Notes: generated by a model not told the origin, from the letters alone. Counted from the first letter of the stretch, positions 2,590 to 56,947 are shown. The stretch is 64,000 bases of DNA from Firmicutes bacterium CAG:321_26_22 (GCA_001916775.1 MNTB01000034.1:3478-67477); one strand, 5' to 3'. Translations and numbers: made by a program.

Positions 2590-2667
2590 TCCTTACTATT
2601 ATAATAATACCAAATTATTAGTAGTTTTTCAAGTATTTTTATATGTTTAATTTAAATTTTTATACCT

Positions 2668-2722
2668 TTCATGAAATGCCTAAGTCATTTCATGTCATTA
2701 CTAGCCTATTCTATAGTCTAGT
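2668..2722. repeat. dispersed intergenic element, type 'CATGAAATG hairpin + CTAGCCT..AGTCTA hairpin' (copy 1 of 3)
   Basis: ttcatgaaatgcctaagtcatttcatgtc...ctagcctattctatagtctag. Near-identical architecture at 27180 and 51192. Confidence 0.6.
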
Positions 2723-2851
2723 AATGAATAACTATAAGATATTATATTCATGGTGAAATACTTTCTAACTTAGATAATTCCAAATAAAAAGAAAGATAAC
2801 TAGTATCTTTATAGTTAGAATATCTTGGTAATATTTTATATAATTTTTTTA

Positions 2852-2887
2852 TGATAGAGACTATTATATAGGCTCTATCATACCGCG
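2852..2887. repeat. dispersed intergenic hairpin element TGATAGAG-ACTATTATATAGG-CTCTATCA(TACCGCG)
   Basis: Inverted near-identical copy at 13706-13740 (tgatagTgactattatataggctctatca). Related copies at 6360, 42185, 56863. Confidence 0.6.
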
Positions 2888-2934
2888 TAAAACATAAACT
2901 TGTTTATGGTTGAAGTGGCAAAAAAAGAATAAAT

Positions 2935-3144
2935 TTACATAAACTTATTCATTTGTTTCATCATTTGATTTACTTGTTTTTGAGATGGTGTCCTTCCCAT
3001 CTGACTCATCATAGTCTTAATCATTTGCTCATTAATAGGAGGATTCTTTTTTAATTCTTTTTTCATTAATTTTCTAGCTACTAGAAAACCAATAACTAAT
3101 CCTACTACTAAACCTATTACTATATATAATATATCCCAAAGCAT
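2935..3144 (-). CDS. yneF: UPF0154 family membrane protein (YneF-like)
   Basis: [25 protein letters not shown]...[31 protein letters not shown] matches the conserved UPF0154/YneF sequence. Confidence 0.8.
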
Positions 3145-3165
3145 ATTATTCTCTCCTCTCTATAG

Positions 3166-3603
3166 TTATTGTACTATTAAATTATTATTTTGTAAAGAAT
3201 TTAATTTAGATAGCCAAAAATAATCCATATTTTTAAAATCACAGACAAATAAATTGTTATTATAATTATTTATATCATTAAAGAAAATACTATAGTTATT
3301 TTCTGTTTCTATCTTAATATTATAATTATTTATTCTTAAAATACTCTTATCAGTTGTATTTAAATAATGAATATTATCTTTTCTCTTATATCCATATTTA
3401 TATTTATATTCATTATAAATATATTCATTTAACATTATCTTATTAAAAGGATTTGCTATTTCTTCTAATACATGATAGGCTTTAATACTATTATAATCTC
3501 TAGAATAATATATTTCCTCAAATATTTTATACATCTTAAAAGGTTTATCTTTATACATATAACTATAATATTTATTAACATTAAAAATATAGTATGTTCT
3601 CAT
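3166..3603 (-). CDS. hypothetical Tyr/Asn-rich protein
   Basis: 145-aa ORF with strong low-complexity Y/N/K composition; no recognisable motif. Confidence 0.35.
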   Translation of the reverse strand: MRTYYIFNVNKYYSYMYKDKPFKMYKIFEEIYYSRDYNSIKAYHVLEEIANPFNKIMLNEYIYNEYKYKYGYKRKDNIHYLNTTDKSILRINNYNIKIETENNYSIFFNDINNYNNNLFVCDFKNMDYFWLSKLNSLQNNNLIVQ

Positions 3604-3653
3604 TTATATCACCATAAATAAAATATCATACTATATTTATTTATTTTGTCGAA

Positions 3654-5654
3654 TTATAAATTATTCTTTATTTTTATTACTAAATCAGTCATATCTAATT
3701 CAAAGAAATTTAATACTTCTTTTTCACTACCACTCTTACCAAAGGTTGGTATGTTAACAAAATCTTCATCAGATGAGATAAAGCGATACCAATTGGCATC
3801 ATTTGATAATTCTATAACCATACGACGATATCCTGTTGGTAAGACCTGCTCCTGATAATCTTTGTCTTGTTTTAGGAATAAATTCATATTGGGCATTGAT
3901 ACTACTCTGGCTTCAATATAATTCTTTAGTAATTCTTCTTTTATATTAACCGCTAATTCTACTTCACTACCTGTTGCTATTATTACTAAATCTAATCTTG
4001 TTCTTACTTCGCTAATTACGTAACCACCACGCGCTACTTTATTTGGATTAGTGTATTTCATTGTGTTGTTATGACCACGAGGTAATATTAAGGCTGATGG
4101 TTTACCTTCTCTTAGAATATTTGTCCAAGAACCCATTAGTTCTTTATAATCAGCAGGTCTATATACTGATAAATTAGGTATACTTCTTAAGGCTCCTAGT
4201 TGTTCTACTGGCTCGTGAGTTGGTCCATCCTCTCCTACTCTAACACTATCATGAGTAAAGATATATGTTACTGGTAAGTTCATCATGGCACTCATTCTAA
4301 TAGATGGTTTCATATAATCAGAAAAGGCTAAGAATGTACTTCCATAACTACGAATATTAGTTAAGGCTAAACCATTTAAGACCGCTCCCATAAGATTCTC
4401 TCTAACACCAAAGTTAATATTACGACCAGAATAATCATCTACTGAAAACTCATTCTTTCCTTTTAGATATGTCTTAGTACTACAGAATAAATCAGCTGAA
4501 CCTCCCATAAAGTTTGGTATAAAGGTACTAATAACATTCATTATTTGATAATTTATATCACGCATTGCTTTATCTTCAAATATCTTACTAGTATCAATAA
4601 CTGCTGCTATATCAAGAGATATTTTTTCATTTTCTATTACTAAATTTATTTTATCTCTTTCACTATCAGTAGCATTAGCTATATACATTTCATATTCAGA
4701 ATACCAATTGCGATAATAATCTTCAGTTCCATCTTTAATAAACTTCATAGCATTATTTCTGTCATTTTCACTATAGGTAAAGGCTGGTCCTCCTTTTAAT
4801 TTTGTTCTTATTTCTTCTAAGTCTTCTTTTTCTAAATTAGAATGAATACGATTAGTTCCTTCATACTTAGAATATATACCTAGGGTTGTTTTTATTTCTA
4901 TTAATACTGGTTTCTTACTCTTTTTGGCTTTTTCGATAGCATTAGATATTTCACCAATATTTTCGCCATCTTTTACTTTAATTACTTCCCAGTTCATTGA
5001 AGCAAATCTATCAGGAATATTTTCATACATAGCTTTATCTAAATCACCATCAGCAGTTACACCATTGGAGTCATATAGAACAATTAAATTATCTAAGCCT
5101 AGATTGCCCGCTAGGGAAGCTGCTTCATAAGATATTCCTTCCATTAGGTCACCATCAGATACTAAGGTATATATCTTATAGTCAAAGACAATGTTTTTCT
5201 TTTTATTAAAGGTGCTTTCTAAATATTTTTCACCAATAGCTAATCCTACTGATGTAGCAAAGCCTTCTCCTAATGGACCTGTTGTTACTTCAATACGATT
5301 GTTTAAATTATATTCAGGATGACCAGTACACTGAGAATTTATTTTACGAAAGTTTTTTAATTCTTCTAGATTAAATTCATCTAATAAATAATATAATGTA
5401 CTATATAATAAGGCTGAACCATGACCTGCACTTAATACAAATCTATCTCTATTACACCATGCTTTTCTTTCTAAATCAAATTTTAGGTGATATGCAAATA
5501 GTGTATATAGTGTGGGAGCAGCATCTAGAGCTATTCCTGGATGACCAGATCCCGCTGCATTTATCATATCTAATGCTAATAATCTTATATCATTTACAAT
5601 TCTTTTTTCATTTAGTTTCATATTTCTACCTACCTTATAATTTAATTCTATCAT
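3654..5654 (-). CDS. tkt: transketolase
   Basis: LDMINAAGSGHPG TPP-binding motif and a 666-aa length typical of Tkt. The true start may be the internal MKLNEK. Confidence 0.9.
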   Translation of the reverse strand: MIELNYKVGRNMKLNEKRIVNDIRLLALDMINAAGSGHPGIALDAAPTLYTLFAYHLKFDLERKAWCNRDRFVLSAGHGSALLYSTLYYLLDEFNLEELKNFRKINSQCTGHPEYNLNNRIEVTTGPLGEGFATSVGLAIGEKYLESTFNKKKNIVFDYKIYTLVSDGDLMEGISYEAASLAGNLGLDNLIVLYDSNGVTADGDLDKAMYENIPDRFASMNWEVIKVKDGENIGEISNAIEKAKKSKKPVLIEIKTTLGIYSKYEGTNRIHSNLEKEDLEEIRTKLKGGPAFTYSENDRNNAMKFIKDGTEDYYRNWYSEYEMYIANATDSERDKINLVIENEKISLDIAAVIDTSKIFEDKAMRDINYQIMNVISTFIPNFMGGSADLFCSTKTYLKGKNEFSVDDYSGRNINFGVRENLMGAVLNGLALTNIRSYGSTFLAFSDYMKPSIRMSAMMNLPVTYIFTHDSVRVGEDGPTHEPVEQLGALRSIPNLSVYRPADYKELMGSWTNILREGKPSALILPRGHNNTMKYTNPNKVARGGYVISEVRTRLDLVIIATGSEVELAVNIKEELLKNYIEARVVSMPNMNLFLKQDKDYQEQVLPTGYRRMVIELSNDANWYRFISSDEDFVNIPTFGKSGSEKEVLNFFELDMTDLVIKIKNNL

Positions 5655-5721
5655 AATTTAGTGAAAAATAAAAGAAGAAATATTATTTTCTCCTTTAGTT
5701 ATGGGTTTTTATGTAAACTAT

Positions 5722-6306
5722 TTAATTGACTTCGAGTAATTTTTTTATTTTTAAGAAGAATGATTCTTTTTCGTCTTTCTTTGTTACTTCTAGTAATTTT
5801 TTAAATAATCTTATTTCATCCTTTTTAAAAACTACTTCTTTAGAACCTACTTCAATTAATCTTATTACTTCTTCTATTTTATACCATCTTACAAAACTTA
5901 ATTCTTCCTTTTGAATTGTAAAGTCTTCAGCCTTTTGATTACATATTACATAATATGGATACATATAATGATTGTTATATTTTTCCTCGACTAAATACTT
6001 ATCACAAAGTGGATGAAGATCTTCTTTTTTTATTTTTAATCCTACTTCTTCTTTAGTTTCTCTTACAGCACATGTTAATATATCTTCACGATATGATTGA
6101 TGGCCAGCGATTACTCCTAATTTATTAGGACAAAATCTTCGATTCTTACTTCTTCTTTGAAGTAATACTTCTCCTTTATCATTTATGATATATATAGTTA
6201 CTTCATTATGTAATTTACCTCTATTATGTAATTCTTCTCTTTCTATTATTTCATTAGTATCATTTCCTAGTTTATCTACTACCCTTAATAATTCCATTCT
6301 TATCAC
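5722..6306 (-). CDS. NUDIX hydrolase
   Basis: Nudix box GHQSYREDILTCAVRETKEEVGL (GX5EX7REUXEEXGU). Confidence 0.75.
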   Translation of the reverse strand: MIRMELLRVVDKLGNDTNEIIEREELHNRGKLHNEVTIYIINDKGEVLLQRRSKNRRFCPNKLGVIAGHQSYREDILTCAVRETKEEVGLKIKKEDLHPLCDKYLVEEKYNNHYMYPYYVICNQKAEDFTIQKEELSFVRWYKIEEVIRLIEVGSKEVVFKKDEIRLFKKLLEVTKKDEKESFFLKIKKLLEVN

Positions 6307-6359
6307 CTACATTACTCTTATAGTATATCATACTTTTGATATTTTTTACATAGTTTTAA

Positions 6360-6424
6360 TCATAGAGACTATACTTAGGCTCTATGATTCCTAATGAAGA
6401 CTTATGTTATAAGGCTTCATAGGC
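6360..6424. repeat. dispersed intergenic element (TCATAGAG..CTCTATGA hairpin + TAAGGCTTCATAGG tail)
   Basis: Shares modules with 42185-42246 (AAGGCTTCATAGG identical) and 56863-56926. Confidence 0.55.
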
Positions 6425-6453
6425 AAAAAAGAAAGAACTCTTATTTATTAATT

Positions 6454-7713
6454 GTACGTTTGTAAATGATGTGAAACAATATTTTTTGTAAAAATGACTC
6501 AATTTGATTATTGGGTTGTTTTTTTCTTTGCTACTATATAAATAACACAGAAATGAATTTAGTCAATGATTAACGTTAGTTAAATTTATTTTGCATTGAC
6601 TAAAGAAATGAATGTGTTATGCTGTACAAGCAAAGAAACAATTAATTCTTTTCTTTTTTCTAATGGCGTTAAATAATTTAAACAAGCCATTGGTATTTTA
6701 TTACTTCTTTCTAAATATGCTTTTCCTTTTTCTCTTAAGTCTTCTAAATTATTAATTATTAATGTATTGTAAAACCTCTCGTTATCATTTCTGTGACTTC
6801 TTTCTACTTTTCCATTATGTCTTGGAGTTCTTGGTCTTATTTTGTGATGATCTATATCCAACTTTAAGCACAAATCATCTAAAGGATGTAGCTTTTTCAT
6901 TTTGCTTTGATTCCAAGTAAACTCTGTACCATTATCAGTTTGTATTTCTGAAGGTTTATATTCAAAATAAGAAATACATCTTTTTACAAAATCTACGGTA
7001 TTGGCAGGAGTATGTTCATCATACCAATATAAAAACCTTTCCCTTGTTGCTTCATCAATGCATGTATATTGATAATATTTCTTATCTAACGGTACTTTGT
7101 CACTTAAGCATATAGAAGGAACATATTTAACATCTATTTGCCATTTTTCACCAAGCATACTAGGTGTAAAATACTTTTTAGGAATATATTTAGAAGTTCC
7201 AGTAATATTAATTTGTTTATAGTAACCTAATTTTCTCATTACTCTATATAAGCTACCAATGTTTCTTTTATATCCTTTATTTATTCTTAATTTATACCAT
7301 ATTTCGCCAAGAGTAAGATTATCATTTTTATGTCTCTTTAACAAATCTTTTATCCATTTTATTTCTTCCTTTGTATGAGCATTAGGATGCGGAGAGTGCG
7401 GTCTATGCGATTTATCCATAAGAGATTCTAATGTACCATCATAAGCTTTATTCCATCTATATAAAGATGTTCTGGAAATATGATATTTTCTTAGCACATA
7501 ACTAATTGAATTTCCATTTCTATAAGTTTTTACAGCATTTTCACGAGTTTTAATATCGTGTGGCAAATATCTTTTGCTTTTTTCTTTATTTTCATTTATA
7601 ATATTCATAGTGATTCAAGTCCTTTCAAAATAATATTTTTGGTTCAACTCAATATTATACAACTTGAATCACTTTTTTTGTATAGAAATGTTTCGCATCA
7701 ATTGTAACACAAC
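6454..7713 (-). mobile_element. Insertion sequence (IS481 / ISNCY-IS1202-like) with ~27-bp imperfect terminal inverted repeats, flanked by a 27-bp direct repeat
   Basis: Single DDE transposase ORF. Imperfect IRs GTACGTTTGTAAATGATGTGAAACAAT (6454-6480) versus rc of 7687-7713 GTTGTGTTACAATTGATGCGAAACATT (18/27 matches). Direct repeat AAAAGAAAGAACTCTTATTTATTAATT at 6427-6453 and 7714-7740. Confidence 0.75.
6586..7608 (-). CDS. DDE transposase (rve integrase core; IS481/IS1202-group-like) with N-terminal HTH
   Basis: KWQIDVKYV (D), IQTDNGTEFT (D), RPRTPRHNGKVERSHRN (E) form an integrase-core DDE triad. N-terminal HTH (YVLRKYHISRTSLYRW). Confidence 0.8.
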   Translation of the reverse strand: MNIINENKEKSKRYLPHDIKTRENAVKTYRNGNSISYVLRKYHISRTSLYRWNKAYDGTLESLMDKSHRPHSPHPNAHTKEEIKWIKDLLKRHKNDNLTLGEIWYKLRINKGYKRNIGSLYRVMRKLGYYKQINITGTSKYIPKKYFTPSMLGEKWQIDVKYVPSICLSDKVPLDKKYYQYTCIDEATRERFLYWYDEHTPANTVDFVKRCISYFEYKPSEIQTDNGTEFTWNQSKMKKLHPLDDLCLKLDIDHHKIRPRTPRHNGKVERSHRNDNERFYNTLIINNLEDLREKGKAYLERSNKIPMACLNYLTPLEKRKELIVSLLVQHNTFISLVNAK

Positions 7714-7727
7714 AAAAGAAAGAACTC

Positions 7728-9125
7728 TTATTTATTAATTTTATAAGTAGTTCCTTCTCTTGTATCAATTAATTCTATACCTTTAGTTAATAGTTCATCT
7801 CTAATAGCATCTGATAAAGCATAATCTTTATTTTGTTTAGCTATTTTTCTTTCTTCTATTTTATCTTGAATATATTTTTCTAGTTCTGAATCTATATTAT
7901 TATCTTCTTTAATTAAGTCAAGGCTTAATATTTTATCAAAGTCTTCAATTAAATATCTTTTTGTAGTACCATTTACGGTATCATCTTTTATTAAATCATA
8001 TAGTATTGTTATACTATTAGCGGTATTTAAGTCATTAGATAATTCTTCTTTAAATCTATCTTGATATTCTTTTACTTTATCTTCTTGGAGACTACCTTCT
8101 TCTTTAATTAAAGATATCTTATTTATTAATTTATTATATTGATTTTGTACTTGTTCTAAAACAGAATATGAGAAGACTAATTGTTTACGATAATGACTTA
8201 ATAAACACATAAATCTAAAGGCTAATGGATTATAACCATTTTCTTTTAAAACACTTACTGATAAGACTGCTCCTTTACTCTTACTCATTTTACCTGATTC
8301 ATCCATAAGATGTTCATTATGAAACCAATAATTACACCATTTATGTCCTAGATATGCTTCACTTTGAGCTATTTCATTAGTATGATGTGGGAAGATATTA
8401 TCTACTCCTCCACCATGAATATCAAGATGTTCACCAAGATATTTTAAACTAATTCCGGTACATTCTATATGCCAACCGGGATAACCTACTCCAAATGGTG
8501 AATCCCATTTTAAATCTTGATCTTCAAACTTACTCTTAGTAAACCATAGGGCAAAGTCCGCTTGATTTCTCTTATTATCATCAAAGTCTACTCCTTCACG
8601 AACTCCAACGACCATATCATCTTCTTTATGGTTAGTTAATTTATAGTAATCTTCTAATTTACTTACATCAAAGTAAACATTACCTCCGGCTTCATAAGCA
8701 TAACCATCCTCTAGTAACTTGGATATTATTTTAATATATTCATCAATATTATCGGTAGCAGGACTTACTACATCTGGTCTACGACAATTTAACATATCAA
8801 AATCTTTAAAGAAAGCATCAGTATAAAATTTGGCTATATCCATAACTGATTTATGTTCTTTCTTAGCACTAGCTACCATTTTATCTTCACCAGAGTCAGA
8901 GTCACTCTTTAAATGTCCAACATCAGTAATATTCATTACTCTTTTTACATCATAGCCTAAATATCTTAAGGTCTTATCTAAAATATCATGACCTATATAA
9001 TTACGCATATTACCTATATGAGCATAATGATATACTGTTGGGCCACATGTATAGAAACCTACTTTATTACCTTCATATGGTATAAATTCTTCTTTTTGTC
9101 TTGTTAATGTGTTATATAATTTCAT
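7728..9125 (-). CDS. cysS: cysteine--tRNA ligase
   Basis: Class I aaRS HIGH-like (HIGN) and KMSKS (GKMSKSKG) motifs; 465 aa. The zinc-binding Cys context is typical of CysRS. Confidence 0.92.
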   Translation of the reverse strand: MKLYNTLTRQKEEFIPYEGNKVGFYTCGPTVYHYAHIGNMRNYIGHDILDKTLRYLGYDVKRVMNITDVGHLKSDSDSGEDKMVASAKKEHKSVMDIAKFYTDAFFKDFDMLNCRRPDVVSPATDNIDEYIKIISKLLEDGYAYEAGGNVYFDVSKLEDYYKLTNHKEDDMVVGVREGVDFDDNKRNQADFALWFTKSKFEDQDLKWDSPFGVGYPGWHIECTGISLKYLGEHLDIHGGGVDNIFPHHTNEIAQSEAYLGHKWCNYWFHNEHLMDESGKMSKSKGAVLSVSVLKENGYNPLAFRFMCLLSHYRKQLVFSYSVLEQVQNQYNKLINKISLIKEEGSLQEDKVKEYQDRFKEELSNDLNTANSITILYDLIKDDTVNGTTKRYLIEDFDKILSLDLIKEDNNIDSELEKYIQDKIEERKIAKQNKDYALSDAIRDELLTKGIELIDTREGTTYKINK

Positions 9126-9159
9126 TTTAATCCTCCTAATTATTATATTTTTATTTATT

Positions 9160-9191
9160 ATATAAAAGAACTTATCTATTATGATAAGTCC
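9160..9191 (-). terminator. intrinsic terminator in cysS leader (GGACUUAUC-AUAAUA-GAUAAGUUC-UUUUAU)
   Basis: 9-bp stem (8 WC + 1 GU) followed by a U-run on the minus-strand transcript. Lies between the leader ORF and the cysS RBS (TAGGAGG). Confidence 0.5.
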
Positions 9192-9203
9192 TCTTCGTAT
9201 ACT

Positions 9204-9287
9204 TTATTTATCTTGTAAGCATAAGGAAATAGACCTATCATTTAATAGATCTTGACAACACATTTTATTAGTAGTAAGTCTATTCAT
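9204..9287 (-). CDS. putative cysS leader peptide (27 aa: MNRLTTNKMCCQDLLNDRSISLCLQDK) with tandem Cys codons
   Basis: Small ORF with an AGGAAGAG RBS, downstream of promoter TTGACT-17-TAAAAT (9314-9342) and upstream of the terminator. Contains UGU UGU plus UGC codons; segments for alternative hairpins are present. Confidence 0.35.
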   Translation of the reverse strand: MNRLTTNKMCCQDLLNDRSISLCLQDK

Positions 9288-9313
9288 AGTATCTCTTCCT
9301 TTCTTACAATATT

Positions 9314-9342
9314 ATTTTATAATAAATTATTTATTTAGTCAA
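9314..9342 (-). promoter_or_regulatory. sigma-A-type promoter of the cysS leader (TTGACT-17-TAAAAT)
   Basis: rc of 9337-9342 is TTGACT, rc of 9314-9319 is TAAAAT, spacer 17 nt. Confidence 0.5.
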
Positions 9343-9376
9343 TTATTATTTCTTATTCCTGTTAAATAATTCGTAA

Positions 9377-10228
9377 TTAGTTCTTTTTCTTTATTATTTT
9401 TTTATCTTTATTATAATTATATTTTTGATATAATTCTTTCTTACTATCTAAATCAATCATTGGAGCATCTTTTACTAAAACTACAAAAGCAGATGTAGCA
9501 TAGTTTTCTTTAAATGTTCTATATAGACTTTTTTCTATATAATAATTATCTTCTTCTTCATATTCATTTCCTATATATTTAAATATTATGTTACCAGTAT
9601 ATACTTCAGGATTAGGAAAGGTATAATCTTCATTTAGTTCTTCTTCGGTAATATAATAACCACTTTGATAATTATAATTAGTAAGCATATATCTATCTAG
9701 ATTATAATATTTATCTAGTACTTTTAGTATAGTATCATTATTAATATGTTTTCTTCTTACATAAGATAATATTTTCCATACTGTAAAAGTTGGCATTTTC
9801 TTTAAATGCATATTCTTTTGTCTTTGATACTCTAAAGCATTTATTATATTATTAAATGCTTCTAGGTAGACTTGATTATTCTTTACGGCTTCAATATGTC
9901 TATATAGGTCTGTCTCCTCCAAAGGAAGATCTCCTAGTATAAAGTCTTCATATAATTCTACTATTTCTGGATTAACATCTTTAAATAAATAATATTTATA
10001 TGTACTTTCATTCATGTTTTTAATAACATTTTCAAGACTATCTACTATTTGTTTATTTGTTTTTGTTTTATCATATGGTGACTTTTCGTATTTTCTTTTT
10101 ATTTTTTCTAACTCTTGTTTTCTTTTATTTGGTTTATCCTCCACTATATTAATACACATGGCAAGTATTAATTCTTTATTTTCATATAAATAACTATATC
10201 TTCTTATTAATTCTTCTTTAATGTCCAT
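9377..10228 (-). CDS. hypothetical protein
   Basis: 283-aa ORF, K/E/Y-rich, with no recognisable motif. Confidence 0.4.
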   Translation of the reverse strand: MDIKEELIRRYSYLYENKELILAMCINIVEDKPNKRKQELEKIKRKYEKSPYDKTKTNKQIVDSLENVIKNMNESTYKYYLFKDVNPEIVELYEDFILGDLPLEETDLYRHIEAVKNNQVYLEAFNNIINALEYQRQKNMHLKKMPTFTVWKILSYVRRKHINNDTILKVLDKYYNLDRYMLTNYNYQSGYYITEEELNEDYTFPNPEVYTGNIIFKYIGNEYEEEDNYYIEKSLYRTFKENYATSAFVVLVKDAPMIDLDSKKELYQKYNYNKDKKIIKKKN

Positions 10229-10395
10229 TGCTACCTCCTGGTAATTTATTTTATCATAATATATTAGTTAAGTAAATATTTTACTATAGTTTTCCTACTT
10301 ATATATGATAAATGATGGTATTATTTGCAGACCTTAGGCTGCAAATAACCCTCTAAGACCTAGGCTTAGAGGGATAACAAAAAGATATTATTACT

Positions 10396-11478
10396 TTACT
10401 TATTTTGTAATAATTCATTTAAATATTCATTATCAGAAAAGTAGTTTAGTTTCATTGCTTCTTTTACTTCTTCTAATGTTTTATTGGCTTTATTAGATGC
10501 CTTGGTGGTACCTTCCTTTAAAATATTATATACTTCTTCAATGTTATTAGCATATTTTTTTCTTCTTTCTCTGATAGGAGTTAATTCATCGTTTATTACT
10601 TCAGTTAGGAATTTTTTTATGGTAACATCTCCTATTCCACCTTTTTGATAGGCTTTTTTTAAGGATTCTAAGTTTTGAAACTCTGGATAATACTTTTGAA
10701 AATGGGTATCAGTACAAAAGGCTTCTAAATAAATGAAGAGAATATTGTCTTTAAGTATTCCTGGTTCTTCTACTTTTCTAGATGTTGTTTTTATACTAAA
10801 TATTTTTTCTTTTATTATTTCTTTTTCATCAGATAAATAAATACAATTATTTAACGATTTACTCATCTTAGTATTTCCATCGGTGCCTACAAGTCTTCTT
10901 TGATAAATATTATCAGGTAATATTGATGTACATTCTTGTAAGACATTAGTTTTATATATTCGATTAAATGCTCTTACTATTTCTCTTGTTTGTTCAATCA
11001 TAGGTTCTTGATCATCTCCTACTGGTATTATATTAGCTTTGAAGGCTGTTATATCAGCGGCTTGACTTATTGGATATGCTGTAAAACCTACGGGAATGCT
11101 ATCTTTGAATTTTTTGGCGTTTAATTCACTTTTTACTGTAGGATTTCTAAATAGTCTATTTATTGTTACTAGATTCATGTAATAGTAGGTTAATTCTGTT
11201 AAGGCACTTACTCCTGATTGAACAAAGAATGTTACTTTACTTGGATCTAGGCCTACTGCCAAATAATCAAGCATTACTTCTATTACATTTTTTCTTACTT
11301 TATCTGGATTATCAAAATTATCAGTTAAAGCTTGTGAATCCGCTATCATAATATAAAATTCATCATAATTCCCTTCTTCTTGTAATTTATATCTTCTTTT
11401 TAAAGACCCAACATAATGTCCTATATGTAATCTACCTGTTGGTCTATCTCCTGTTAAAATTATATTTTTCATTTTCAT
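10396..11478 (-). CDS. trpS: tryptophan--tRNA ligase
   Basis: TGDRPTGRLHIGHYVGSL (HIGH) and KMSKS motifs; 360 aa as typical for TrpRS. Confidence 0.92.
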   Translation of the reverse strand: MKMKNIILTGDRPTGRLHIGHYVGSLKRRYKLQEEGNYDEFYIMIADSQALTDNFDNPDKVRKNVIEVMLDYLAVGLDPSKVTFFVQSGVSALTELTYYYMNLVTINRLFRNPTVKSELNAKKFKDSIPVGFTAYPISQAADITAFKANIIPVGDDQEPMIEQTREIVRAFNRIYKTNVLQECTSILPDNIYQRRLVGTDGNTKMSKSLNNCIYLSDEKEIIKEKIFSIKTTSRKVEEPGILKDNILFIYLEAFCTDTHFQKYYPEFQNLESLKKAYQKGGIGDVTIKKFLTEVINDELTPIRERRKKYANNIEEVYNILKEGTTKASNKANKTLEEVKEAMKLNYFSDNEYLNELLQNK

Positions 11479-11563
11479 CTTCCTCTCTTTCTATATTTAT
11501 AAATTATTTAATTAAACACCACCGTTTACTTAATATACTCATAACAACCTCCTATTAAATATA

Positions 11564-11594
11564 CAAAAAAGACCTACCTAATAAAGATAAGTCT
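11564..11594 (-). terminator. intrinsic terminator in trpS leader (AGACUUAUC-UUUAUUA-GGUAGGUCU-UUUUUU)
   Basis: 9-bp stem (7 WC + 2 GU) plus U6 on the minus transcript, positioned between the leader ORF and the trpS RBS. Confidence 0.5.
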
Positions 11595-11624
11595 ATAAAT
11601 TACATTAATAATATTTATATTAAT

Positions 11625-11705
11625 TTAATTCCACGAGTAAATAGACTTATCTTCAAATAAGTCTAGCCAGCTATTTAATTTAACTAAAACTATATTTATT
11701 TTCAT
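11625..11705 (-). CDS. putative trpS leader peptide (26 aa: MKINIVLVKLNSWLDLFEDKSIYSWN) with two Trp codons
   Basis: AGAGGAG RBS 7 nt before the ATG, downstream of promoter TTGACA-17-TAAAAT (11731-11759). Segments 1-4 can form 1:2, 2:3 and 3:4 alternative hairpins. UGG at codons 13 and 25. Confidence 0.4.
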   Translation of the reverse strand: MKINIVLVKLNSWLDLFEDKSIYSWN

Positions 11706-11730
11706 AGTCTATCTCCTCTTTCTTATCTAG

Positions 11731-11759
11731 ATTTTAGTACTTTTTTATTACTTTGTCAA
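11731..11759 (-). promoter_or_regulatory. sigma-A-type promoter of the trpS leader; the same ~29-bp promoter block is repeated at 12848-12873 upstream of the methyltransferase gene
   Basis: TTGACA (rc 11754-11759) - 17 nt - TAAAAT (rc 11731-11736). Block ttttattactttgtcaatatttttatttt is duplicated at 12846-12874. Confidence 0.5.
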
Positions 11760-11842
11760 TATTTTTATTTTATCTTTTGATTTATCTTGTCAATTTCTTT
11801 TTTTAAATGTTACATTGTTAAATAATCTTAACATATTTATGT

Positions 11843-12610
11843 TTACTTTCTAGCATATATTCCATAGTATCTTCTTACTAATCTTATGCCACTAGGATAT
11901 GTATTTCTTTCAATATATTTATTTAATTTTTCTTCATCTAACTTGCTTTGATAGTGATCCTTGATATCACCTTGTTCTTCAGAAAAATCATCAATGATTG
12001 GAACTTTTAAGAGAAAATTATATAAGCTTTCTCTTGTTTTAAAGTATTCTCTAACATGGATTGGTATTAGTTCAACATCTTTGAAACCTGCTGATATGAT
12101 ATTTTCATAATCTATTATACTTATTGGTTTGGTATCTTTGAAAGCTTGACCTTTACCAAAGATTAGTTTCAGTTCATAGCAGTCATATTTATCTACTCCG
12201 TGAACTAGTAAATGACCATCTTCTTTTAGAAAGTAATATATTTGTTTAGCATCTATAGGAGTGTTTCTGGCCACTACTACGTCATAATATTTATCTGGAA
12301 CATCCATTAATAAATTATCCATTACTTTAAAAGTTATATTCTTACGTCCACTTTGTAATAAGTTCTCTTTAGCAGTCTTTATCATTGCTTCTGAATAATC
12401 TGTTCCTAGTATTTCTGAGACTTCGGGAAAATATTTTAATAGTTTTTCTCCACCACCTGTACCTAAGTCTAGTATTCTTGAATTTTTATTTGTTATTTTT
12501 CTTAGAATACTATATAGATCCCAATTTGTTAATTTTTCACTTATTATGTTAAAAGTACTGAAATCCCAATTTTTTATTTCTTCATAATATTTTTGCTCAT
12601 TTATTTTCAT
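11843..12610 (-). CDS. class I SAM-dependent methyltransferase
   Basis: Motif I ILDLGTGGGEKLL and an acidic motif-II region; 255 aa. Confidence 0.75.
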   Translation of the reverse strand: MKINEQKYYEEIKNWDFSTFNIISEKLTNWDLYSILRKITNKNSRILDLGTGGGEKLLKYFPEVSEILGTDYSEAMIKTAKENLLQSGRKNITFKVMDNLLMDVPDKYYDVVVARNTPIDAKQIYYFLKEDGHLLVHGVDKYDCYELKLIFGKGQAFKDTKPISIIDYENIISAGFKDVELIPIHVREYFKTRESLYNFLLKVPIIDDFSEEQGDIKDHYQSKLDEEKLNKYIERNTYPSGIRLVRRYYGIYARK

Positions 12611-12868
12611 ATTTTTTTCTCCATTTTTTAATATTTTTGTGTGATTGTATAATTATATAGAAAAAGAACCTCCTTTCATGAACATACGCAAAAAACAATC
12701 ACAAAAATAATTTTGTATGTTTATTTGCCATTCATGAGGAGATTCTTAAGGCTCTTCATTATTCCTTTAAACTTTATGTTTATCTGGTAGTAAAACGCGA
12801 ATGGACTAATTGAGTTACTACATCTATAATTTAACATAGTTTTTATTACTTTGTCAATATTTTTATTT

Positions 12869-13603: not shown

Positions 13604-13680
13604 TATTATTCCCCCCTTTAAGTGATTAGTATTGTAGCATAAAATTTGATAAAATGCAAATTTTGGTTTATCTTTTGCCC

Positions 13681-13740
13681 TTACAGCCTGTAGTCTTTCA
13701 GGGTATGATAGAGCCTATATAATAGTCACTATCATAAAGG
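13681..13740. repeat. dispersed intergenic element (CAGCCTGTAGTC + TGATAGAGCCTATATAATAGTCACTATCA)
   Basis: Inverted copy of the 2852-2887 hairpin. CCTGTAGTC is shared with 23452-23462. Confidence 0.55.
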
Positions 13741-13758
13741 GTTATATAAAAATAAGTA

Positions 13759-17456: not shown

Positions 17457-17654
17457 ATTAATTGTATCATAAATTTTAACTTTTTTATAGTACTTTTATA
17501 ACTTTTTTATCTTCTTTTAAATATTTCGTGAACATCACACAATTTAAAATTGCATGCTTCTAACATTGCTATTAGAATTTTCTCCATTTAATAATATCAT
17601 TATTAATGTAAAGAGACATAAACTCGGATAGTTCCTACCCTATATATAATTTAA

Positions 17655-19142: not shown

Positions 19143-19435
19143 ATTATCACCATAATAATCATACCATATGTAAGCGTAAAAGTAAATGCTTTTGGAAGCA
19201 AAAAAGGAAAAATCTAACTCACAAATTAATTCACGAGAGTGCGATTTTTAGTTCTTCAAATAAAGAATTATTATGTTTTTCTTCTATTTCTTTTAATAAT
19301 TCTTCTGTAGTAATTTCTTTCATACAAAAAAACCTCTTTCTATTTAAAAGTACCCTTTCACAAAGTGTCTTTATTTTACCACAAAAGAAAATTTTTTACA
19401 ACAAAAAAAGAATAACACTATGTTATCCTTAATTA

Positions 19436-23323: not shown

Positions 23324-23409
23324 CTTATCAATCCTCTACTCGTATTAATTATAACATTTCTAGATATAAAAGTAAATGTTTTATAGTTATTTTTATTTTT
23401 TATTATTGC

Positions 23410-23490
23410 CATTAAAGCCTATATATAATAGTCTTTAATGGTTATGAATAGCCTGTAGTCTATTCATAATAAACTATCATATTTGAGGTG
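23410..23490. repeat. dispersed intergenic element (AAAGCCTATATATAATAGTC + GAATAGCCTGTAGTCTATTC + AAACTATCATAT)
   Basis: Shares ATAATAGTC/TAGGCT and CTATCATAT modules with other copies. The GTAGTCTATTCATA module is also present in the cysS leader (9270-9290). Confidence 0.55.
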
Positions 23491-23565
23491 AAGTACTTTC
23501 TAACTATTAAATAACAATATAAAAAGAGCTTTTAGCTCTTTTTAGGAATAATAGCAGTCTGTTAA

Positions 23566-23964: not shown

Positions 23965-23999
23965 ACAACAATCGTAAATAATAGTTTCGAAGACAGAAA

Positions 24000-24185: not shown

Positions 24186-24201
24186 TCCTCCTTTCTAATA
24201 A

Positions 24202-27179: not shown

Positions 27180-27262
27180 TTTCATGAAATGCCAAGGTCA
27201 TTTCATGTCTTCTCTAGCCTTATGTTAAGTCTACAGAAGATGTCTCAGTAGACCTATCATAT
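27180..27262. repeat. dispersed intergenic element (CATGAAATG hairpin + CTAGCCTTATGTTAAGTCTAC + GACCTATCATAT), copy 2 of 3
   Basis: ttcatgaaatgccaaggtcatttcatgtc..ctagccttatgttaagtcta..gtagacctatcatat. Confidence 0.6.
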
Positions 27263-27312
27263 ATAAGTTAAAGAGCAAAATGAAAAGAACTAGTTCAAAT
27301 AAACTAATTCTT

Positions 27313-32682: not shown

Positions 32683-32683
32683 T

Positions 32684-32761: not shown

Positions 32762-33043
32762 TACTCAAACCTCCAACCCCCTAAGAAGTAAAAAAGTTCT
32801 TTCATCATAGACGTCACCCCTTTCTCTTAGGAATACTAAGAAATTGGAGAGAATACACCATGTAAGTGTTACCTAAATAATTGTACTATAGTTTCACTTA
32901 ATAGTCAATATAATATGGCTATTTATTTTTATTTTATATATACATACAAATGTATATATTACTATCATAAGAAAGGCATTAGACTTTCTTATGATATAAA
33001 AGACCTATAAGAACTTATAACAAAAAACAAGATAAACCTTAGG

Positions 33044-37916: not shown

Positions 37917-37982
37917 CTTATCACATCTTCCTAGAATAATTATATATTAAATGAATATTTTAGTCAATAATTTAATTCTATA

Positions 37983-42165: not shown

Positions 42166-42184
42166 TTACCTAAACTAAATGATT

Positions 42185-42246
42185 AATAGAGAGACTTAAT
42201 TATTTAAGGTTCTCTATTACCTATGAAGACCTAAGGCTTCATAGGA
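42185..42246. repeat. dispersed intergenic element (TAGAGAG..CTCTCTA hairpin + CCTAAGGCTTCATAGG)
   Basis: Module shared with 6360-6424. Confidence 0.5.
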
Positions 42247-50682: not shown

Positions 50683-50683
50683 A

Positions 50684-51191: not shown

Positions 51192-51277
51192 CCATGAAAA
51201 TCCAAGGTATTTTCATGTCCAATCTAGCCTAATTCTTAGTCTATATTGGAGTCTCTTTGGACCTATCATATTCGCGG
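51192..51277. repeat. dispersed intergenic element (CATGAAAATCC hairpin + CTAGCCTAATTCTTAGTCTAT + GACCTATCATATTCGCGG), copy 3 of 3
   Basis: ccatgaaaatccaaggtattttcatgtcc..ctagcctaattcttagtctat..ggacctatcatattcgcgg. Confidence 0.6.
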
Positions 51278-54385: not shown

Positions 54386-54402
54386 AAATTCTAATCGATT
54401 TT

Positions 54403-54786
54403 TTATTTATATTCTGCTGTTTTACTAAATGCTAATATTGGAAGACATACAATACTAAAGAATACTGTTGCTACTCCAAAGCCTGTAGACTTTCCAAATT
54501 TATGTGCTAACTCAATGTATATTTTAAATAATGCATATATGTTAGCAAATGGTATAAAGAATAGTACTATATACCATAATGGTAATTCTGTGATTTCTAA
54601 TAGTACTATCATATTGTATATTGGTACTATAGAAGCCCATCCTGGTTTACCAGCTTTTTTGAAGATTTTCCACAAACTAACTATTATTAGTATAGAAGCT
54701 AGACTTCCTCCTATTAATGGAAATGTTCCTATTGATGATGTTGTGGATACTCCTGCTGAATAATCATATAAATCATAGTCGTACAT
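54403..54786 (-). CDS. small membrane protein, paralog of the N-terminal domain of the 53831..54385 product
   Basis: Shares LWKIFKKAGKPGWASIVPIYNMIVLLEI with the neighbouring convergent gene. Confidence 0.5.
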   Translation of the reverse strand: MYDYDLYDYSAGVSTTSSIGTFPLIGGSLASILIIVSLWKIFKKAGKPGWASIVPIYNMIVLLEITELPLWYIVLFFIPFANIYALFKIYIELAHKFGKSTGFGVATVFFSIVCLPILAFSKTAEYK

Positions 54787-54879
54787 AAATTCATTTTCCT
54801 CCTTACTTTATGTTCAATTTAAGTATATCATAATAGCAATATTAGAGCAAGAAAAAAAGAAACATTTCTGTTTCTAATT

Positions 54880-55752
54880 TTATGCATTCATTTGTTTTGC
54901 AACTTCGTCAGCAAAGTTTTCTTCTCTTTTTTCCATACCTTCGCCAACTTCGTATCTTACGAAAGATAATACTTTCATATTTTTGCTTTCTACATATTTA
55001 GATACTTTCATTTTGTTTTCTTTTACAAAGCCTTGATCTAATAAACATACTTCTTCATAGAATTTATTTAATCTTCCATTTACAATCATAGGTAATTTAT
55101 TAGCATCTAGTCCTTCATTCTCTGCTTGTTCAGTTAAGATTTCTCTTTCTTTTTCTACTCTTTCAGTAGGTACTGAATCTTTATCTAAATATAGTGGTCT
55201 CATAGCCGCTATTTGCATAGCAACATCTTTTGCTACTTCTTCATCAGTTCCTTCTAAAACTGCTAATGTAACAATTTTTCCACCCATATGTGAATAAGTG
55301 CCAAATACTTGATTATCTTCTTTTTCTACTAGTTCAAATCTTCTAAATGATAATTTTTCTCCAATAGTAGCAGTTTTGTCAATAATAATATTTTCAATAG
55401 TATTACCTTCTACTTCTAATTTCATTACTTCTTCAACTGTTTTTACATTACTACTTAAAATTGCAGTAGCAATTAAATCTACTAATCCAGTAAATTCTGG
55501 ATTTTTAGCAACAAAGTCTGTTTCTGAATTTACTTCAACAATAACAGCTTTATTTCCTTCTACTTTAGCCTTAGCTAATCCTTCAGCAGCAATTCTTGTT
55601 TGCTTTTTAGCAGCTTTAGAAATTCCTTTTTCTCTAAGCCAAGTAATTGCTTCTTCCATATTACCATTTGTTTCAGTAAGAGCTTTTTTACAATCTAGCA
55701 TTCCTGCTCCTGTTGCTTCTCTTAACTCTTTTACCATATTTGCAGTAATCAT
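54880..55752 (-). CDS. tsf: elongation factor Ts
   Basis: N-terminus MITANMVKELREATGAGMLDCKKAL is the canonical EF-Ts UBA-like domain. Confidence 0.9.
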   Translation of the reverse strand: MITANMVKELREATGAGMLDCKKALTETNGNMEEAITWLREKGISKAAKKQTRIAAEGLAKAKVEGNKAVIVEVNSETDFVAKNPEFTGLVDLIATAILSSNVKTVEEVMKLEVEGNTIENIIIDKTATIGEKLSFRRFELVEKEDNQVFGTYSHMGGKIVTLAVLEGTDEEVAKDVAMQIAAMRPLYLDKDSVPTERVEKEREILTEQAENEGLDANKLPMIVNGRLNKFYEEVCLLDQGFVKENKMKVSKYVESKNMKVLSFVRYEVGEGMEKREENFADEVAKQMNA

Positions 55753-55763
55753 AGTATTCCTCC

Positions 55764-56699
55764 TTATTTTAAATTTTCAATTAATTCTTCTTTTTTCATT
55801 TTTGAATAGCCTTTGATTTCTTTTTTCTTAGCTAAATCTCTAAGTTCTGCTACTGTTAAGATATTTAAATCTAATTCTGGCTTTTCTTCTTTGATTTCTT
55901 CTTTTTCAGTAACTTCTTTAGTTTCTTTTACTTCTTTTTTATCTTTTTTAGCAAAAGTTTTTTCTTTAACAGGCTTTTTATCATCTTCACTTACATAATC
56001 AATAATAGTTCCACCATTTGCTTCAATAATAGCATTTGTTAATGAACCAAGTACTACTTTGATACTTCTTACAGCATCATCATTTCCTGGAAGTACATAA
56101 TCTACATCGTCTGGATCACAGTTAGTGTCAATTAGACCAAATACTGGAATACCTAATTTTTTAGCTTCTCTTATTGCATTATATTCTTTAGTTGAATCTA
56201 CAATAATGATTGCTTGTGGTAATTTAGTCATTTCTCTAATACCACATAAGTTTTTATTTAATTTTTCGTATTCTTTCTTAAGTCCTACTACTTCTTTCTT
56301 AGGTAATCTATCAAATGTACCATCTTTTTCCATTTTTTCGATTTCTTCTAGACGATTTACTCTTCTTCTAATAGTTTTGAAGTTTGTTAATGTTCCTCCT
56401 AACCATCTTTCAGTCATGTAATACATGTTACTTCTTTCTGCTTCTTCTTTACATACTTCTTGGGCTTGTTTTTTAGTTCCTACATATAGAACTTTACCTC
56501 CTTCTGCTGCTATTTTATTTAATGCTTCATATGCTTCTTCCATTTTAGCAACAGTTTTTTGTAAGTCAATGATATAAATATCATCTCTAGAGTTATAAAT
56601 ATACTCTTTCATTTTAGGATTCCATCTTTTAGTTTGATGACCAAAGTGAACTCCTGCTTCTAACAAATAGCTCATAGATACTACTGTCATATTAAACAC
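55764..56699 (-). CDS. rpsB: 30S ribosomal protein S2 (with C-terminal K/E-rich extension)
   Basis: [15 protein letters not shown] plus the conserved S2 core; followed by tsf as in the rpsB-tsf operon. Confidence 0.9.
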
Positions 56700-56862
56700 T
56701 CTCCTTTCGTTTTGCTTCCAAATATCTCTTTTTTAATATCCACCTATTAGGCACTGGGATTATTAAATCAATATTTGTGTATATTTTTTGAAAAGCCATT
56801 TATATAGTACCATATTATGCTAAATAAGTAAATATTTTTCATGAATTTTATAACAAAAGTGC

Positions 56863-56926
56863 TATGACAGAGACCTTAGGCTCTGTCATACTCTGAAAGA
56901 CTTATTTTATATAAGGCTGTAAGGGC
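56863..56926. repeat. dispersed intergenic element (TGACAGAG-ACCTTAGG-CTCTGTCA + TATAAGGCTGTAAGGGC)
   Basis: Same hairpin architecture as 2852-2887 and 6360-6424, with a loop containing TAGGC. Confidence 0.55.
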
Positions 56927-56947
56927 AAAAGAAAAAGAGATAACTCT

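Follow-up and report, generated by a model that had tools for sequence, protein, structure and literature searches.

Characterisation of small interspersed palindromic repeats has been confined almost entirely to cultured Proteobacteria and a handful of Gram-positive pathogens. BOX, RUP and SPRITE of pneumococci, bcr1 of Bacillus cereus and the Enterococcus repeats are lineage-specific, intergenic, hairpin-forming and modular elements of 50-150 nt; BOX is built of boxA, boxB and boxC modules, and RUP and bcr1, like typical MITEs, end in inverted repeats and are flanked by target duplications. The attC sites are single long bulged hairpins with R''/L''-L'/R' (GTTRRRY) boxes, found in cassette arrays beside intI. 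If single-stranded DNA transposes by an IS608-type mechanism, one replication strand should be strongly favoured, through use of the lagging-strand template; IS200/IS605-derived elements insert 3' of a short specific target and leave no target duplication. In the REP/REPIN system, short (20-40 bp) imperfect palindromes flank a single-copy RAYT gene. The hallmark of REPs is an unpaired GTAG (or CGTC) tag at one end of the palindrome (PMC3733652). Y1 RAYTs that act on hairpins of single-stranded DNA are the proposed agents of their mobilisation (PMC3116915, PMC3733652, PMC3479197), and REPs are also known mRNA stabilisers (PMC3733652). The repeat described here is a previously undescribed family of 53-70 nt elements, each composed of two abutting hairpins (H1 and H2), and represents a new REP/BIME-like repeat family, clean and well defined, in an uncultured small-genome gut lineage.

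The DNA analysed (the window) is a 64,000-nt stretch of Firmicutes bacterium CAG:321_26_22 (GCA_001916775.1 MNTB01000034.1:3478-67477). A covariance model, R1, was built from a short-apex subset of units (alignment A2), the MAFFT alignment of all units (A1) having misaligned the long H1 apices. R1 found 10 full-length units in the window (E 2e-13 to 3e-6, 128 kb searched), five per strand and all lying between genes, and in addition a degenerate copy. A scan for perfect hairpins that combine a GCCT..GTC apex with 5 bp or more of stem gave 11, against 0.055 expected from Markov shuffles (maximum 1). An earlier note on this DNA had proposed an above-chance family of recurrent intergenic hairpin modules, which is upheld for eight of its site groups (2.67-2.92, 6.36-6.42, 13.68-13.74, 23.41-23.47, 27.18-27.24, 42.18-42.25, 51.19-51.25 and 56.86-56.93 kb); its sites at 9.22-9.30 and 11.58-11.67 kb do not belong to the family, and it had overlooked the minus-strand copy at 10321..10373 (H1 10349-10373, H2 10321-10348; 63.6 bits, E 2e-13), which lies 22 nt past the trpS stop with perfect 8- and 9-bp stems and a fold z of -6.4. 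The plus-strand element at 13678..13736 (62.6 bits; inverted repeat I2) is antisense to its flanking genes and has an H2 near-identical to that at 2850-2882, in keeping with the earlier observation that the copies at 2852 and 13706 are inverted and near-identical (46 nt, 89% complementary); its orthologous copy in a sister species shows two compensatory pair swaps. Four further minus-strand elements are found at 56863..56925, between a 239-aa gene and rpsB (55.5 bits; hairpin scan and fold), at 42184..42245, directly past the terminator of an rseP-like gene and with ACC instead of GCC in H2 (53.2 bits; hairpin scan and fold), at 6358..6423, after the cysS terminator T tract and also present in loci L080 and L001 (50.8 bits), and at 2850..2918, with a long-apex H1 of the ACC..GTT variant (49.1 bits). 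On the plus strand, an antisense element at 23409..23469 lies upstream of a hicB-like gene (53.5 bits; fold z -8.0), and the CATGAAAT subfamily (direct-repeat family D3) contributes three antisense copies at 2670..2727 (38.6 bits; fold z -8.9), 51193..51250 (37.4 bits) and 27183..27240 (33.9 bits). The degenerate copy at 32966..33019 (minus strand; 20.4 bits, E 0.0055) has a reversed apex order (GTC..GCC). The window copies are diverged from one another and thus give no sign of recent activity.

Across all 43 units listed, H1 is always followed by H2 with 0 nt between them, and the two hairpins share one polarity, GCC..GTC. With a length of 25-35 nt, each hairpin consists of a lower stem that varies freely yet remains strictly Watson-Crick, an apex whose length differs among hairpins (0-13 nt) and, near the apex, a fixed 5-bp box, AGCCT/AGTCT, with the pairs A-T, G-C, C.T, C-G and T-A. 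The C.T mismatch is retained in 54 of 58 H1 and 61 of 62 H2 hairpins and is replaced by a Watson-Crick pair in none; because H1 lay outside the search pattern, its mismatch constitutes independent evidence. This box is the conserved part of the hairpins, rather than the TAGGC in the loop noted earlier for module (a). Nor are the four modules (a)-(d) of the earlier note freely mixed: module (a) corresponds to H2, (d) to H1 on the other strand, (b) to H2 of one subfamily and (c) to a subfamily-specific 3' extension, as at 27241..27265. All 10 window units fold as two adjacent hairpins, with z from -2.5 to -8.9 and none of 200 shuffles equally stable. Both sides change in 14 of 21 pairs in alignment A2, and in alignment A3 double changes occupy 188 of 1283 cells against 4 with one-sided changes of the G.U type; the observed values were reached by 0 of 500 shuffles and collapsed in slid controls. 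Double changes with almost no G.U-type change are characteristic of palindromic DNA and not of a typical structured RNA. The C.T mismatch, a pyrimidine internal loop and a 5' T tract are conserved features that distinguish the two strands. The first 10 nt of the element match the reverse complement of its last 10 at a mean of 2.2 positions (maximum 5), and no target duplication was discernible in the low-complexity flanks.

The earlier view of a dispersed, intergenic, REP/BIME-like mosaic family of palindromes is supported by these data. As with REPs and BIMEs, the elements are short, imperfect, extragenic palindromes in many copies (10 units in 64 kb, none within genes), lie mostly just downstream of genes in either orientation, comprise several sequence classes occurring as mosaics, are lineage-restricted and vertically persistent, and conserve an unpaired or mismatched feature in the stem. 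Unlike in REPs, this feature is an internal mismatch box near the apex and not a tag at the hairpin foot: GTAG, CTAC, CGTC or GACG occurs within 8 nt of either foot at 0 of 34 sites, GTAG being present only inside apices (7 elements). The family is not a REPIN, since its hairpins are direct, not inverted, and have no spacer; no RAYT was found in the window and 84 loci, and the host is no proteobacterium but an uncultured gut lineage with small, low-GC genomes. Palindrome-associated elements derived from IS200/IS605, non-autonomous forms that retain just the hairpins of the left and right ends, offer a second parallel, with two similar same-polarity hairpins that one dimeric enzyme could bind, strand asymmetry, a biased left flank without an obvious target duplication, and a Y1 transposase gene in the genome; the ends of the resident IS605-type unit are, however, unrelated to the family, no strong replication-strand bias is seen, and no spacer or cleavage-site motif is definable here. 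The Gram-positive elements show no sequence similarity to the family; unlike RUP, bcr1 and classical MITEs, it has neither terminal inverted repeats nor a discernible duplication, and unlike BOX it consists of two box-bearing hairpins.

Occurrences of the family were confined to a group of uncultured gut bacteria with small genomes. R1 gave 67 strong matches in loci of low-GC MAGs, which represent at least 12 species carrying the label Tenericutes or Bacilli, and no matches in high-GC control loci that had been chance matches to the search pattern; the family was not found in unrelated phyla, and viral contigs, plasmids and phages gave chance coding-region matches or none. Searches of Rfam returned only a tRNA-Arg for the window at the gathering threshold, nothing relevant to the elements or leaders (T-box included) for 2500-14000 at E<=5, and nothing for 20 trpS loci at the gathering threshold, and nothing describing the family was found in the literature on RF39 repeats. 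Two further expectations of the earlier note, that the elements are unlike described families and are not limited to this region, thus hold, the second as the family recurs at numerous non-homologous loci spread over at least 12 related species. Its forecast of hundreds of copies genome-wide is not supported, and per-MAG counts of the exact H2 pattern (7 places in the MAG of the window's species, 2 in a complete 1.46-Mb relative) point lower. The matches collapse to 34 independent sites beside unrelated, mostly housekeeping genes, none within a gene. Occupancy is specific to the clade: among the relatives, only those with trpS identity of at least 91% have the copy 3' of trpS, and none was found in about 150 kb from relatives at or below 78%. 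Copies are retained at orthologous sites across species of one genus, with pairing restored after change; at one such site in a sister species, H2 differs by two compensatory swaps and a different apex and H1 is nearly unchanged, and one H2 sequence is joined to different H1s at other sites. A BLAST of the flanks of 103 elements against the collected DNA revealed no empty site.

The flanks are asymmetric. Immediately 5' of H1, 23 of the 34 independent sites have a pyrimidine/T run (8 or more pyrimidines in 10 positions) and 1 has a purine run; positions -3 to -12 are 74-88% pyrimidine, T accounting for 53-82% against 37% expected, and about 6 of the 34 sites are without a T tract. The run corresponds either to the tail of a terminator or to a ribosome-binding site read on the opposite strand. 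No discrete 4-5 nt target motif was found in the left flank of the 34 sites, and H2 is followed by AA(A)A, with T-rich sequence only from +6. Intrinsic termination by the unit was considered and rejected, the T run being on the wrong side (5' of H1) and a terminator scan calling only H1 of the 10.35-kb copy. The distance from the upstream stop, given earlier as 20-75 bp, in fact ranges from 0 to about 96 nt. Orientation shows only a weak bias, whether judged against genes or against replication: 21 to 11 with respect to the upstream gene, and 21 sites with the element's top strand on the G-rich strand against 11 on the C-rich strand, the window copies being split 5 to 5 in each comparison.

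Our confidence is evenly balanced for the explanation we favour, namely that the copies belong to a non-coding, REP/BIME-like DNA repeat specific to this lineage, which spread into T tracts in the form of a strand-specific hairpin and was then inherited vertically. The unit would have been spread by an enzyme that reads single-stranded DNA in its folded form, an HUH/Y1 transposase or another enzyme of comparable structure specificity, which may recognise the C.T mismatch box in both hairpins and insert the unit on the 3' side of an oligo-pyrimidine/T tract in the top strand of the element. Placement 3' of a T tract would explain the sense copies after terminator T tails, and placement 3' of a pyrimidine run the antisense copies just upstream of ribosome-binding sites. 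However, no feature of AT-rich intergenic DNA is commoner than the T tract, so the flank bias could partly reflect tolerated, not targeted, insertion, and the splits of 21 to 11 and 5 to 5 count against mobilisation of the IS608 type, for which a strong strand bias is predicted. After insertion, the copies would have been inherited vertically, remaining stable within species, and would have been reshuffled module by module via conversion between copies. Given their position at the ends of genes, the copies probably form 3'- or 5'-end hairpins in transcripts too, which is regarded as a secondary effect.

The resident Y1 transposase was considered as the cognate enzyme of the elements. The Y1 (IS200/IS605) gene tnpA is accompanied by tnpB (17655-19142), is not flanked by elements, the nearest being more than 4 kb off, and occupies the same locus in all strain contigs, homologues in other species sitting elsewhere; tblastn with approximate Y1/RAYT queries against the window and 84 loci found only this gene. 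It was rejected on present evidence, as the ends of the window's IS (about 19264 and 17526) have no AGCCT/AGTCT box, fold weakly, share no hairpin with the family and give no R1 match. No enzyme tied to the elements was found, the sole Y1 gene seen belonging to an ordinary IS605-type unit. Owing to its sharp signature (same-polarity hairpins, invariant mismatch, Watson-Crick covariation and T-tract flank), the family is a good substrate for seeking a hairpin-reading enzyme.

It is possible, although we consider it unlikely, that the element is instead a host cis-acting RNA, whose double hairpin protects mRNA 3' ends against exonucleases, blocks read-through from one operon into the next or structures 5' UTRs and intercistronic spacers, and is maintained by site-wise selection instead of transposition. 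Sense-oriented elements begin 0-58 nt past the stop codon, and at several antisense sites (L017, L055, L068 and L012) the element exactly spans the gap between two operon genes, with the ribosome-binding site directly after H1; the stability of the hairpins and the retention of orthologous copies across the genus, pairing being restored after change, agree with such a role, as does the stabilisation of mRNA by REPs. Yet between one third and one half of the copies have antisense orientation relative to the genes around them, the conserved features differ between the strands and G.U pairs are nearly absent (4 of 1283 cells). Moreover, many sense copies lie between a terminator hairpin with its T tail and the next promoter, where they should be poorly transcribed, and the hairpins, having no direct U tract, are not terminators themselves; both points count against a host RNA.

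That the units serve as recombination or docking sites, with recombinase-read hairpins forming attC-like junctions at which gene cassettes and small modules are exchanged, is distinctly doubtful. In three comparisons, synteny does break at the H2 end or no more than about 20 nt from it: at window position 2845, where the element at 2850..2918 marks the end of synteny with the close relatives L080 and L078, between L024 and L074, L075 and L082, where a GNAT gene is present or absent, and downstream of trpS. A small-toxin-like module of about 430 bp always abuts the 3' end of H2, as at 32527-32957 beside the degenerate copy, and accessory acetyltransferase genes are among the neighbours. The units also resemble attC in keeping structure more than sequence, in strand specificity, in unpaired bases for recognition and in the variable genes nearby. 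They differ, however, from its single long bulged hairpin with R and L boxes in having two short hairpins without a GTTRRRY core, scattered among housekeeping genes in a window without an integrase; no integrase or recombinase adjoining the elements was found, most copies lie between housekeeping genes, the indels are not bounded by two elements, and indels occur in intergenic DNA anyway, the sample being small. A cassette array was discarded for the 2-kb spacing in L024, L026, L055 and L017, which reflects tandem gene duplication carrying the element along. Still less probable is the combined proposal that the unit, with its fixed C.T-mismatch box, is the recognition site of a structure-specific DNA enzyme of this gut lineage which places it at oligo-T tracts and also joins further modules, such as promoters, a small-toxin cassette and accessory genes, to the H2 end; if true, a reduced genome would here exchange cassettes at docking sites scattered along it, which would correspond to attC sites but be dispersed and lack an integrase.

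Equally improbable, in our estimation, are DNA sites at which a host protein (a nucleoid-associated protein, gyrase or similar) uses extruded cruciforms to organise supercoiling domains from one transcription unit to the next, as proposed for BIMEs. The position of elements between a terminator and the next promoter, their occurrence in both orientations and stems that are strictly Watson-Crick on both strands would suit such sites, but the variable apex (0-13 nt) and stems oppose a dimer reading the duplex, and the mismatch box and T tract are strand-asymmetric and not needed by a cruciform binder. Finally, chance similarity of hairpins and terminators is a negligible explanation even in a 26% GC genome where simple hairpins are frequent, given 11 hairpins against 0.055 expected, E values down to 2e-13, an invariant box and mismatch, and occurrence in many species with none in controls.

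The family by itself overturns nothing known. Its covariance model marks the clade in metagenomes, the elements flag sites where assemblies and synteny tend to break, and the family explains apparent 'structured RNA' signals in the clade's intergenic regions. What had been assigned to the family at 9.22-9.30 and 11.58-11.67 kb are the attenuator hairpins in the leaders of cysS and trpS; no R1 match (E<=10) and no mismatch box is present there, and the suggestion that these leaders share the family's hairpins is not supported. The IS at 6427-6453, of the rve family, was inserted just 5' of the 6358..6423 element; as a single case within the cysS terminator T tract, beside and not inside the element, it does not support a causal link between IS and element. 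A look-up of an acs-like protein for IS-free strains gave no record. The window is of uniform skew in a genome of 26% GC; promoter-like sites in this AT-rich DNA number 143 against 149 expected, and a simple promoter/terminator scan is uninformative there.

Some subfamilies carry specific 3' extensions beyond H2, as aligned in A4. Two of these, on the plus strand at 27241..27265 (GTCTC..TAGACCTATCATAT) and 51251..51275 (GTCTC..GGACCTATCATATTCGCGG), belong to the CATGAAAT subfamily. Another type, beginning with TAAGATATTATATTCATGGTGAAATACTTTCTAAC, follows the element at 2670..2727 (2728..2792, plus strand; repeat D14) and is aligned with 23470-23542 and with sequences from L044 and L046, its second copy in the window occupying 23470..23527 (plus strand; D14). 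On its minus strand, 2728..2792 contains what looks like a promoter, TTAGAA-16 nt-TATAAT, which would be directed into the element.

The window has a GC content of 26%, nearly all of its genes lie on the minus strand, and the GC skew of the plus strand is uniformly negative. When all intergenic regions were read on the gene-sense strand, hairpins recurred whose tops share GCCT...(A/G)GTC and whose stems vary from copy to copy. A scan for this core (GCCT-N(0-20)-GTC with 5 or more perfectly complementary bases on either side) found 11 hairpins in the window, against a mean of 0.055 and a maximum of 1 in Markov shuffles; the repeats are therefore a real family, for which AT richness alone is no explanation. 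R1, a covariance model trained on 23 short-apex units (alignment A2), retrieved ten full-length units with E-values of 2e-13 to 3e-6, on the minus strand at 10321-10373, 56863-56925, 42184-42245, 6358-6423 and 2850-2918 and on the plus strand at 13678-13736, 23409-23469, 2670-2727, 51193-51250 and 27183-27240, together with a degenerate copy at 32966-33019. Folded as single-stranded DNA, 10/10 units form two adjacent hairpins (z -2.5 to -8.9), with 0/200 shuffles equally stable. The dispersed hairpin family proposed in an earlier note is borne out by the shuffle-tested scan and by the ten R1 units, most of which that note had listed, the copy at 10.32-10.37 kb being overlooked. Two further sites that it had included, 9.22-9.30 and 11.58-11.67 kb, give no R1 match even at E<=10 and belong, as alternative hairpins, to the leaders of cysS and trpS, respectively.

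In every match from low-GC genomes (H2-pattern scan, one genome per species), the hairpin H2 is preceded without spacer by a second hairpin, H1, and the unit is therefore H1+H2, with a length of 53-70 nt (median 59.5). The four hairpin modules first distinguished do recur, but not as separate entities, since all map onto this unit or its extension: (a) is H2, (d) is H1 seen from the opposite strand, (b) is the H2 of the 'CATGAAAT' subfamily, and (c) is a 3' extension specific to one subfamily. A typical H1 reads CCnnTTnAG-CCT..GT-CTTnnnnGG, often with a 3x3 all-pyrimidine internal loop, and a typical H2 TATGATAGAG-CCT..GT-CTCTATCATA. Both hairpins contain the same 5-bp box (A-T, G-C, C.T, C-G, T-A), topped by a 3-5 nt loop or by an additional small stem-loop. 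In 54/58 H1 and 61/62 H2 the box has its C.T mismatch, with a Watson-Crick pair in none; as H1 lies outside the search pattern, its conservation there is independent evidence. Two-sided changes occur in 14/21 pairs of A2, where 94.8% of cells are paired; 0/500 shuffles matched any observed measure, and sliding the partner by 1-3 columns left pairing at only 30-43%. In A3, an alignment of 62 distinct model-aligned matches, 188 of 1283 cells are double changes vs 4 that are one-sided (G.U-type), and the stems are thus strictly Watson-Crick on both strands, which is unusual for structured RNA and expected of palindromic DNA or of an element obliged to fold as DNA.

Across 185,579 species genomes, the H2 pattern was found at 76 loci, about 48 of them in low-GC (22-31%) MAGs. 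These come from at least 12 species, carry the labels uncultured Tenericutes or Bacilli or Clostridium sp. CAG:302, and include a complete 1.46-Mb 'Bacilli bacterium' chromosome; the labels presumably correspond to the gut order RF39. The scan of relatives with a covariance model, suggested earlier as a check, gave 67 strong R1 matches, all of them in the low-GC loci, and no strong match and two marginal ones in high-GC loci matching the H2 pattern by chance. The window's proteins matched human-gut metagenome contigs only, and the window is 97-98% identical to a locus from a Hadza MAG (L080). Among 79 trpS-anchored metagenome loci, elements were confined to loci whose trpS shares at least 80% identity with that of the window, and about 150 kb from more distant trpS relatives contained none. 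Nothing similar was found in Rfam, plasmids, phages or viral contigs, nor any such family in the literature on RF39 repeats; together with the restriction of matches to the low-GC clade, this indicates that the family is limited to one clade and undescribed so far. Element-bearing contigs of 24-28% GC also occur in a MAG labelled Paludibacteraceae bacterium G02611-L1 (L022, L053, L067, L082), of which L082 is orthologous to loci from Bacilli/Tenericutes MAGs; the MAG is probably mislabelled taxonomically, or else contaminated. At ten copies per 64 kb, a 1.5-Mb genome would hold about 200. However, a search with the exact H2 pattern, to which 2/10 window copies conform, gave only 7 matches in a same-species MAG and 2 in the complete relative; the window may be unusually rich in elements, or the MAG incomplete. 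A genome-wide copy number of at least dozens is safe, and one in the hundreds is unproven.

After orthologous copies had been collapsed, 34 independent sites remained, of which 0/34 lie within genes. At 21 sites the upstream gene is oriented towards the element, at 11 it faces the other way, and co-directional gene pairs hold 14 sense vs 9 antisense elements. The element's top strand coincides with the G-rich strand in 21 cases and with the C-rich one in 11, and the two strands of the window carry 5 vs 5 copies under its uniform skew. The clearest regularity is the 5' flank, where positions -3 to -12 are 74-88% pyrimidine and 53-82% T vs 37% expected; at least 8/10 pyrimidines precede the element in 23/34 sites, and a purine run in 1. 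Where the element is in sense orientation, this pyrimidine run corresponds to the T tail that ends the terminator hairpin of the upstream gene (a reading of the sequence, with upstream fold energies computed). Where the element is antisense, the run complements the ribosome-binding site of the downstream gene; the start codon often lies about 13 nt from H1, and some elements fill the intercistronic gap exactly. Both settings, and both orientations, follow from one rule, a strand-specific preference for an oligo-T or pyrimidine tract. On the 3' side, AA(A)A comes first and T-rich sequence next, with AACAATT at many unrelated sites.

The best-supported interpretation is that of a lineage-specific REP/BIME-like DNA repeat. 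Family, structure, covariation, flank bias, orientation statistics and clade restriction are observed directly; for the mode of spread, we infer a strand-asymmetric hairpin element that would have entered T tracts through a structure-specific enzyme that acts on single strands and may be of the HUH type, with later inheritance mostly vertical and copies reshuffled by conversion. Any role in transcripts would likewise be inferred. The main rival, a host RNA element stabilising or insulating transcripts, fits the positions at gene ends, but many copies are antisense or placed after terminators, the conserved features are strand-asymmetric, and G.U pairs are nearly missing. Function as a recombination site or in cruciform binding is possible at low probability. 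Classical MITEs are ruled out, as the element has no terminal inverted repeats, and attC sites and intrinsic terminators are ruled out by its structure. The REP-like repeat proposed here also differs from REP/REPIN-RAYT systems, which are defined by a GTAG/CGTC tag (PMC3733652) and in which REPIN hairpins are inverted and spaced (PMC3116915), whereas the element lacks this tag and its hairpins are direct and abutting. It works like a REP/BIME-type repeat yet belongs to none of the described families.

A tblastn search of the window and retrieved loci with Y1-transposase queries found one gene, at 18747-19142 (Pfam Y1_Tnp, 1.6e-40), adjoined by TnpB. The corresponding IS605-type element spans 17526-19264 on the minus strand (tnpB 17655-18746, tnpA 18747-19142), its ends at ~19264 and ~17526 having been mapped by comparison with homologues. 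The Y1 gene is at the same rpmF-acs locus (rpmF / AMP-binding enzyme gene) in 10/10 strain contigs returned, with tnpB split in L166; its homologues (73-79% identity) occupy other loci in other organisms, and it therefore belongs to an ordinary IS605-type element. This resident transposase is not demonstrably the cognate enzyme of the repeats: in the IS ends the AGCCT/AGTCT box is missing, folding is weak and R1 finds no match. A second insertion sequence, of the rve (DDE) family (6457-7713; ORF 6586-7608, minus), is absent from the 97%-identical L080; it has inserted into the cysS terminator's T tract, directly 5' of the 6358-6423 element, and a stretch of about 23 nt (AATAAATAAGAGTTCTTTCTTTT) occurs at each of its two junctions.

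Copies are invariant within species (L085-L088), and a search with 103 elements yielded no filled/empty site pair. A sister species lacks the copy 3' of trpS, and there another gene follows trpS. At the 13.7-kb site, the sister species has an element at the orthologous position with an almost identical H1 and an H2 with two compensatory pair swaps and another apex, and the same H2 was found joined to different H1s at other sites; modules were therefore exchanged between copies, or compensated in place. In three comparisons, close relatives cease to be syntenic at the H2 end or close to it; the sample is small, and intergenic DNA undergoes indels anyway. Periodic element arrays in some loci are tandem gene duplications.

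Several other features were noted. A ~430-bp multi-copy module (window 32527-32957; L018, L059, L078, L079, L080) always adjoins the 3' end of an H2 hairpin and has its own promoter. Within it, GGTAACAC pairs at long range with GTGTTACC, and an ORF of 25 aa encodes a hydrophobic peptide, MELVLAFAWITLITIVYIGNMMHRK (MDYVVALAMIIFFFVVYIDNRKNRR in L078), with no Pfam match; the module resembles a type I toxin locus. A 1272-bp tandem duplication (36759-39201) comprises two paralogous genes (385 and 401 aa) and their upstream regions at 76-83% identity. The segment 11778-12861, with a methyltransferase gene (11843-12610), is missing from the strains and species L085-L091; on either side it is bounded by a promoter region that is directly repeated over 49 nt (11742-11790, 12840-12888). 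The interval 23566-24200 holds a gene for a HicB-like antitoxin and a small ORF of HicA type (MTVVKKVIKALENDGWVLVSQKGSHMKFKK...), the latter a HicA-like candidate; upstream of them, a GC-rich stretch, GCGGGGCCTAGCCCCAACACGGGTCGAGTCCTAACC (~24330-24400), is like a tRNA or tmRNA 3' fragment and received no call by ARAGORN or Rfam. A conserved, structured-looking motif, AAATGTTAATCGCTTCTAGGTGGTGCGAGCAATAAATGATC.., single or as a tandem pair, follows an element and precedes a gene in L075 (~780-920), L082 (4110-4250) and L024 (6760-6830), and may be a riboswitch-like leader.

The cysS (9126-9376) and trpS (11479-11842) leaders contain small ORFs in which the cognate codon is abundant, and after these come alternative hairpins and a terminator; aaRS leaders were also read in L085-L108, L099-L103 and L144. 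Neither the window nor any of 20 trpS loci gave a T-box match, and leader-peptide (ribosome-mediated) attenuation looks like the replacement for T-boxes in this clade. The cysS leader ORF, MNRLTTNKMCCQDLLNDRSISLCLQDK, has Cys-Cys, and L099 keeps ..NNKCCFRS...; the trpS leader encodes ..NSWQLGLF.DKSIYSWN and MSILSKRWCLIK, which are kept across species.
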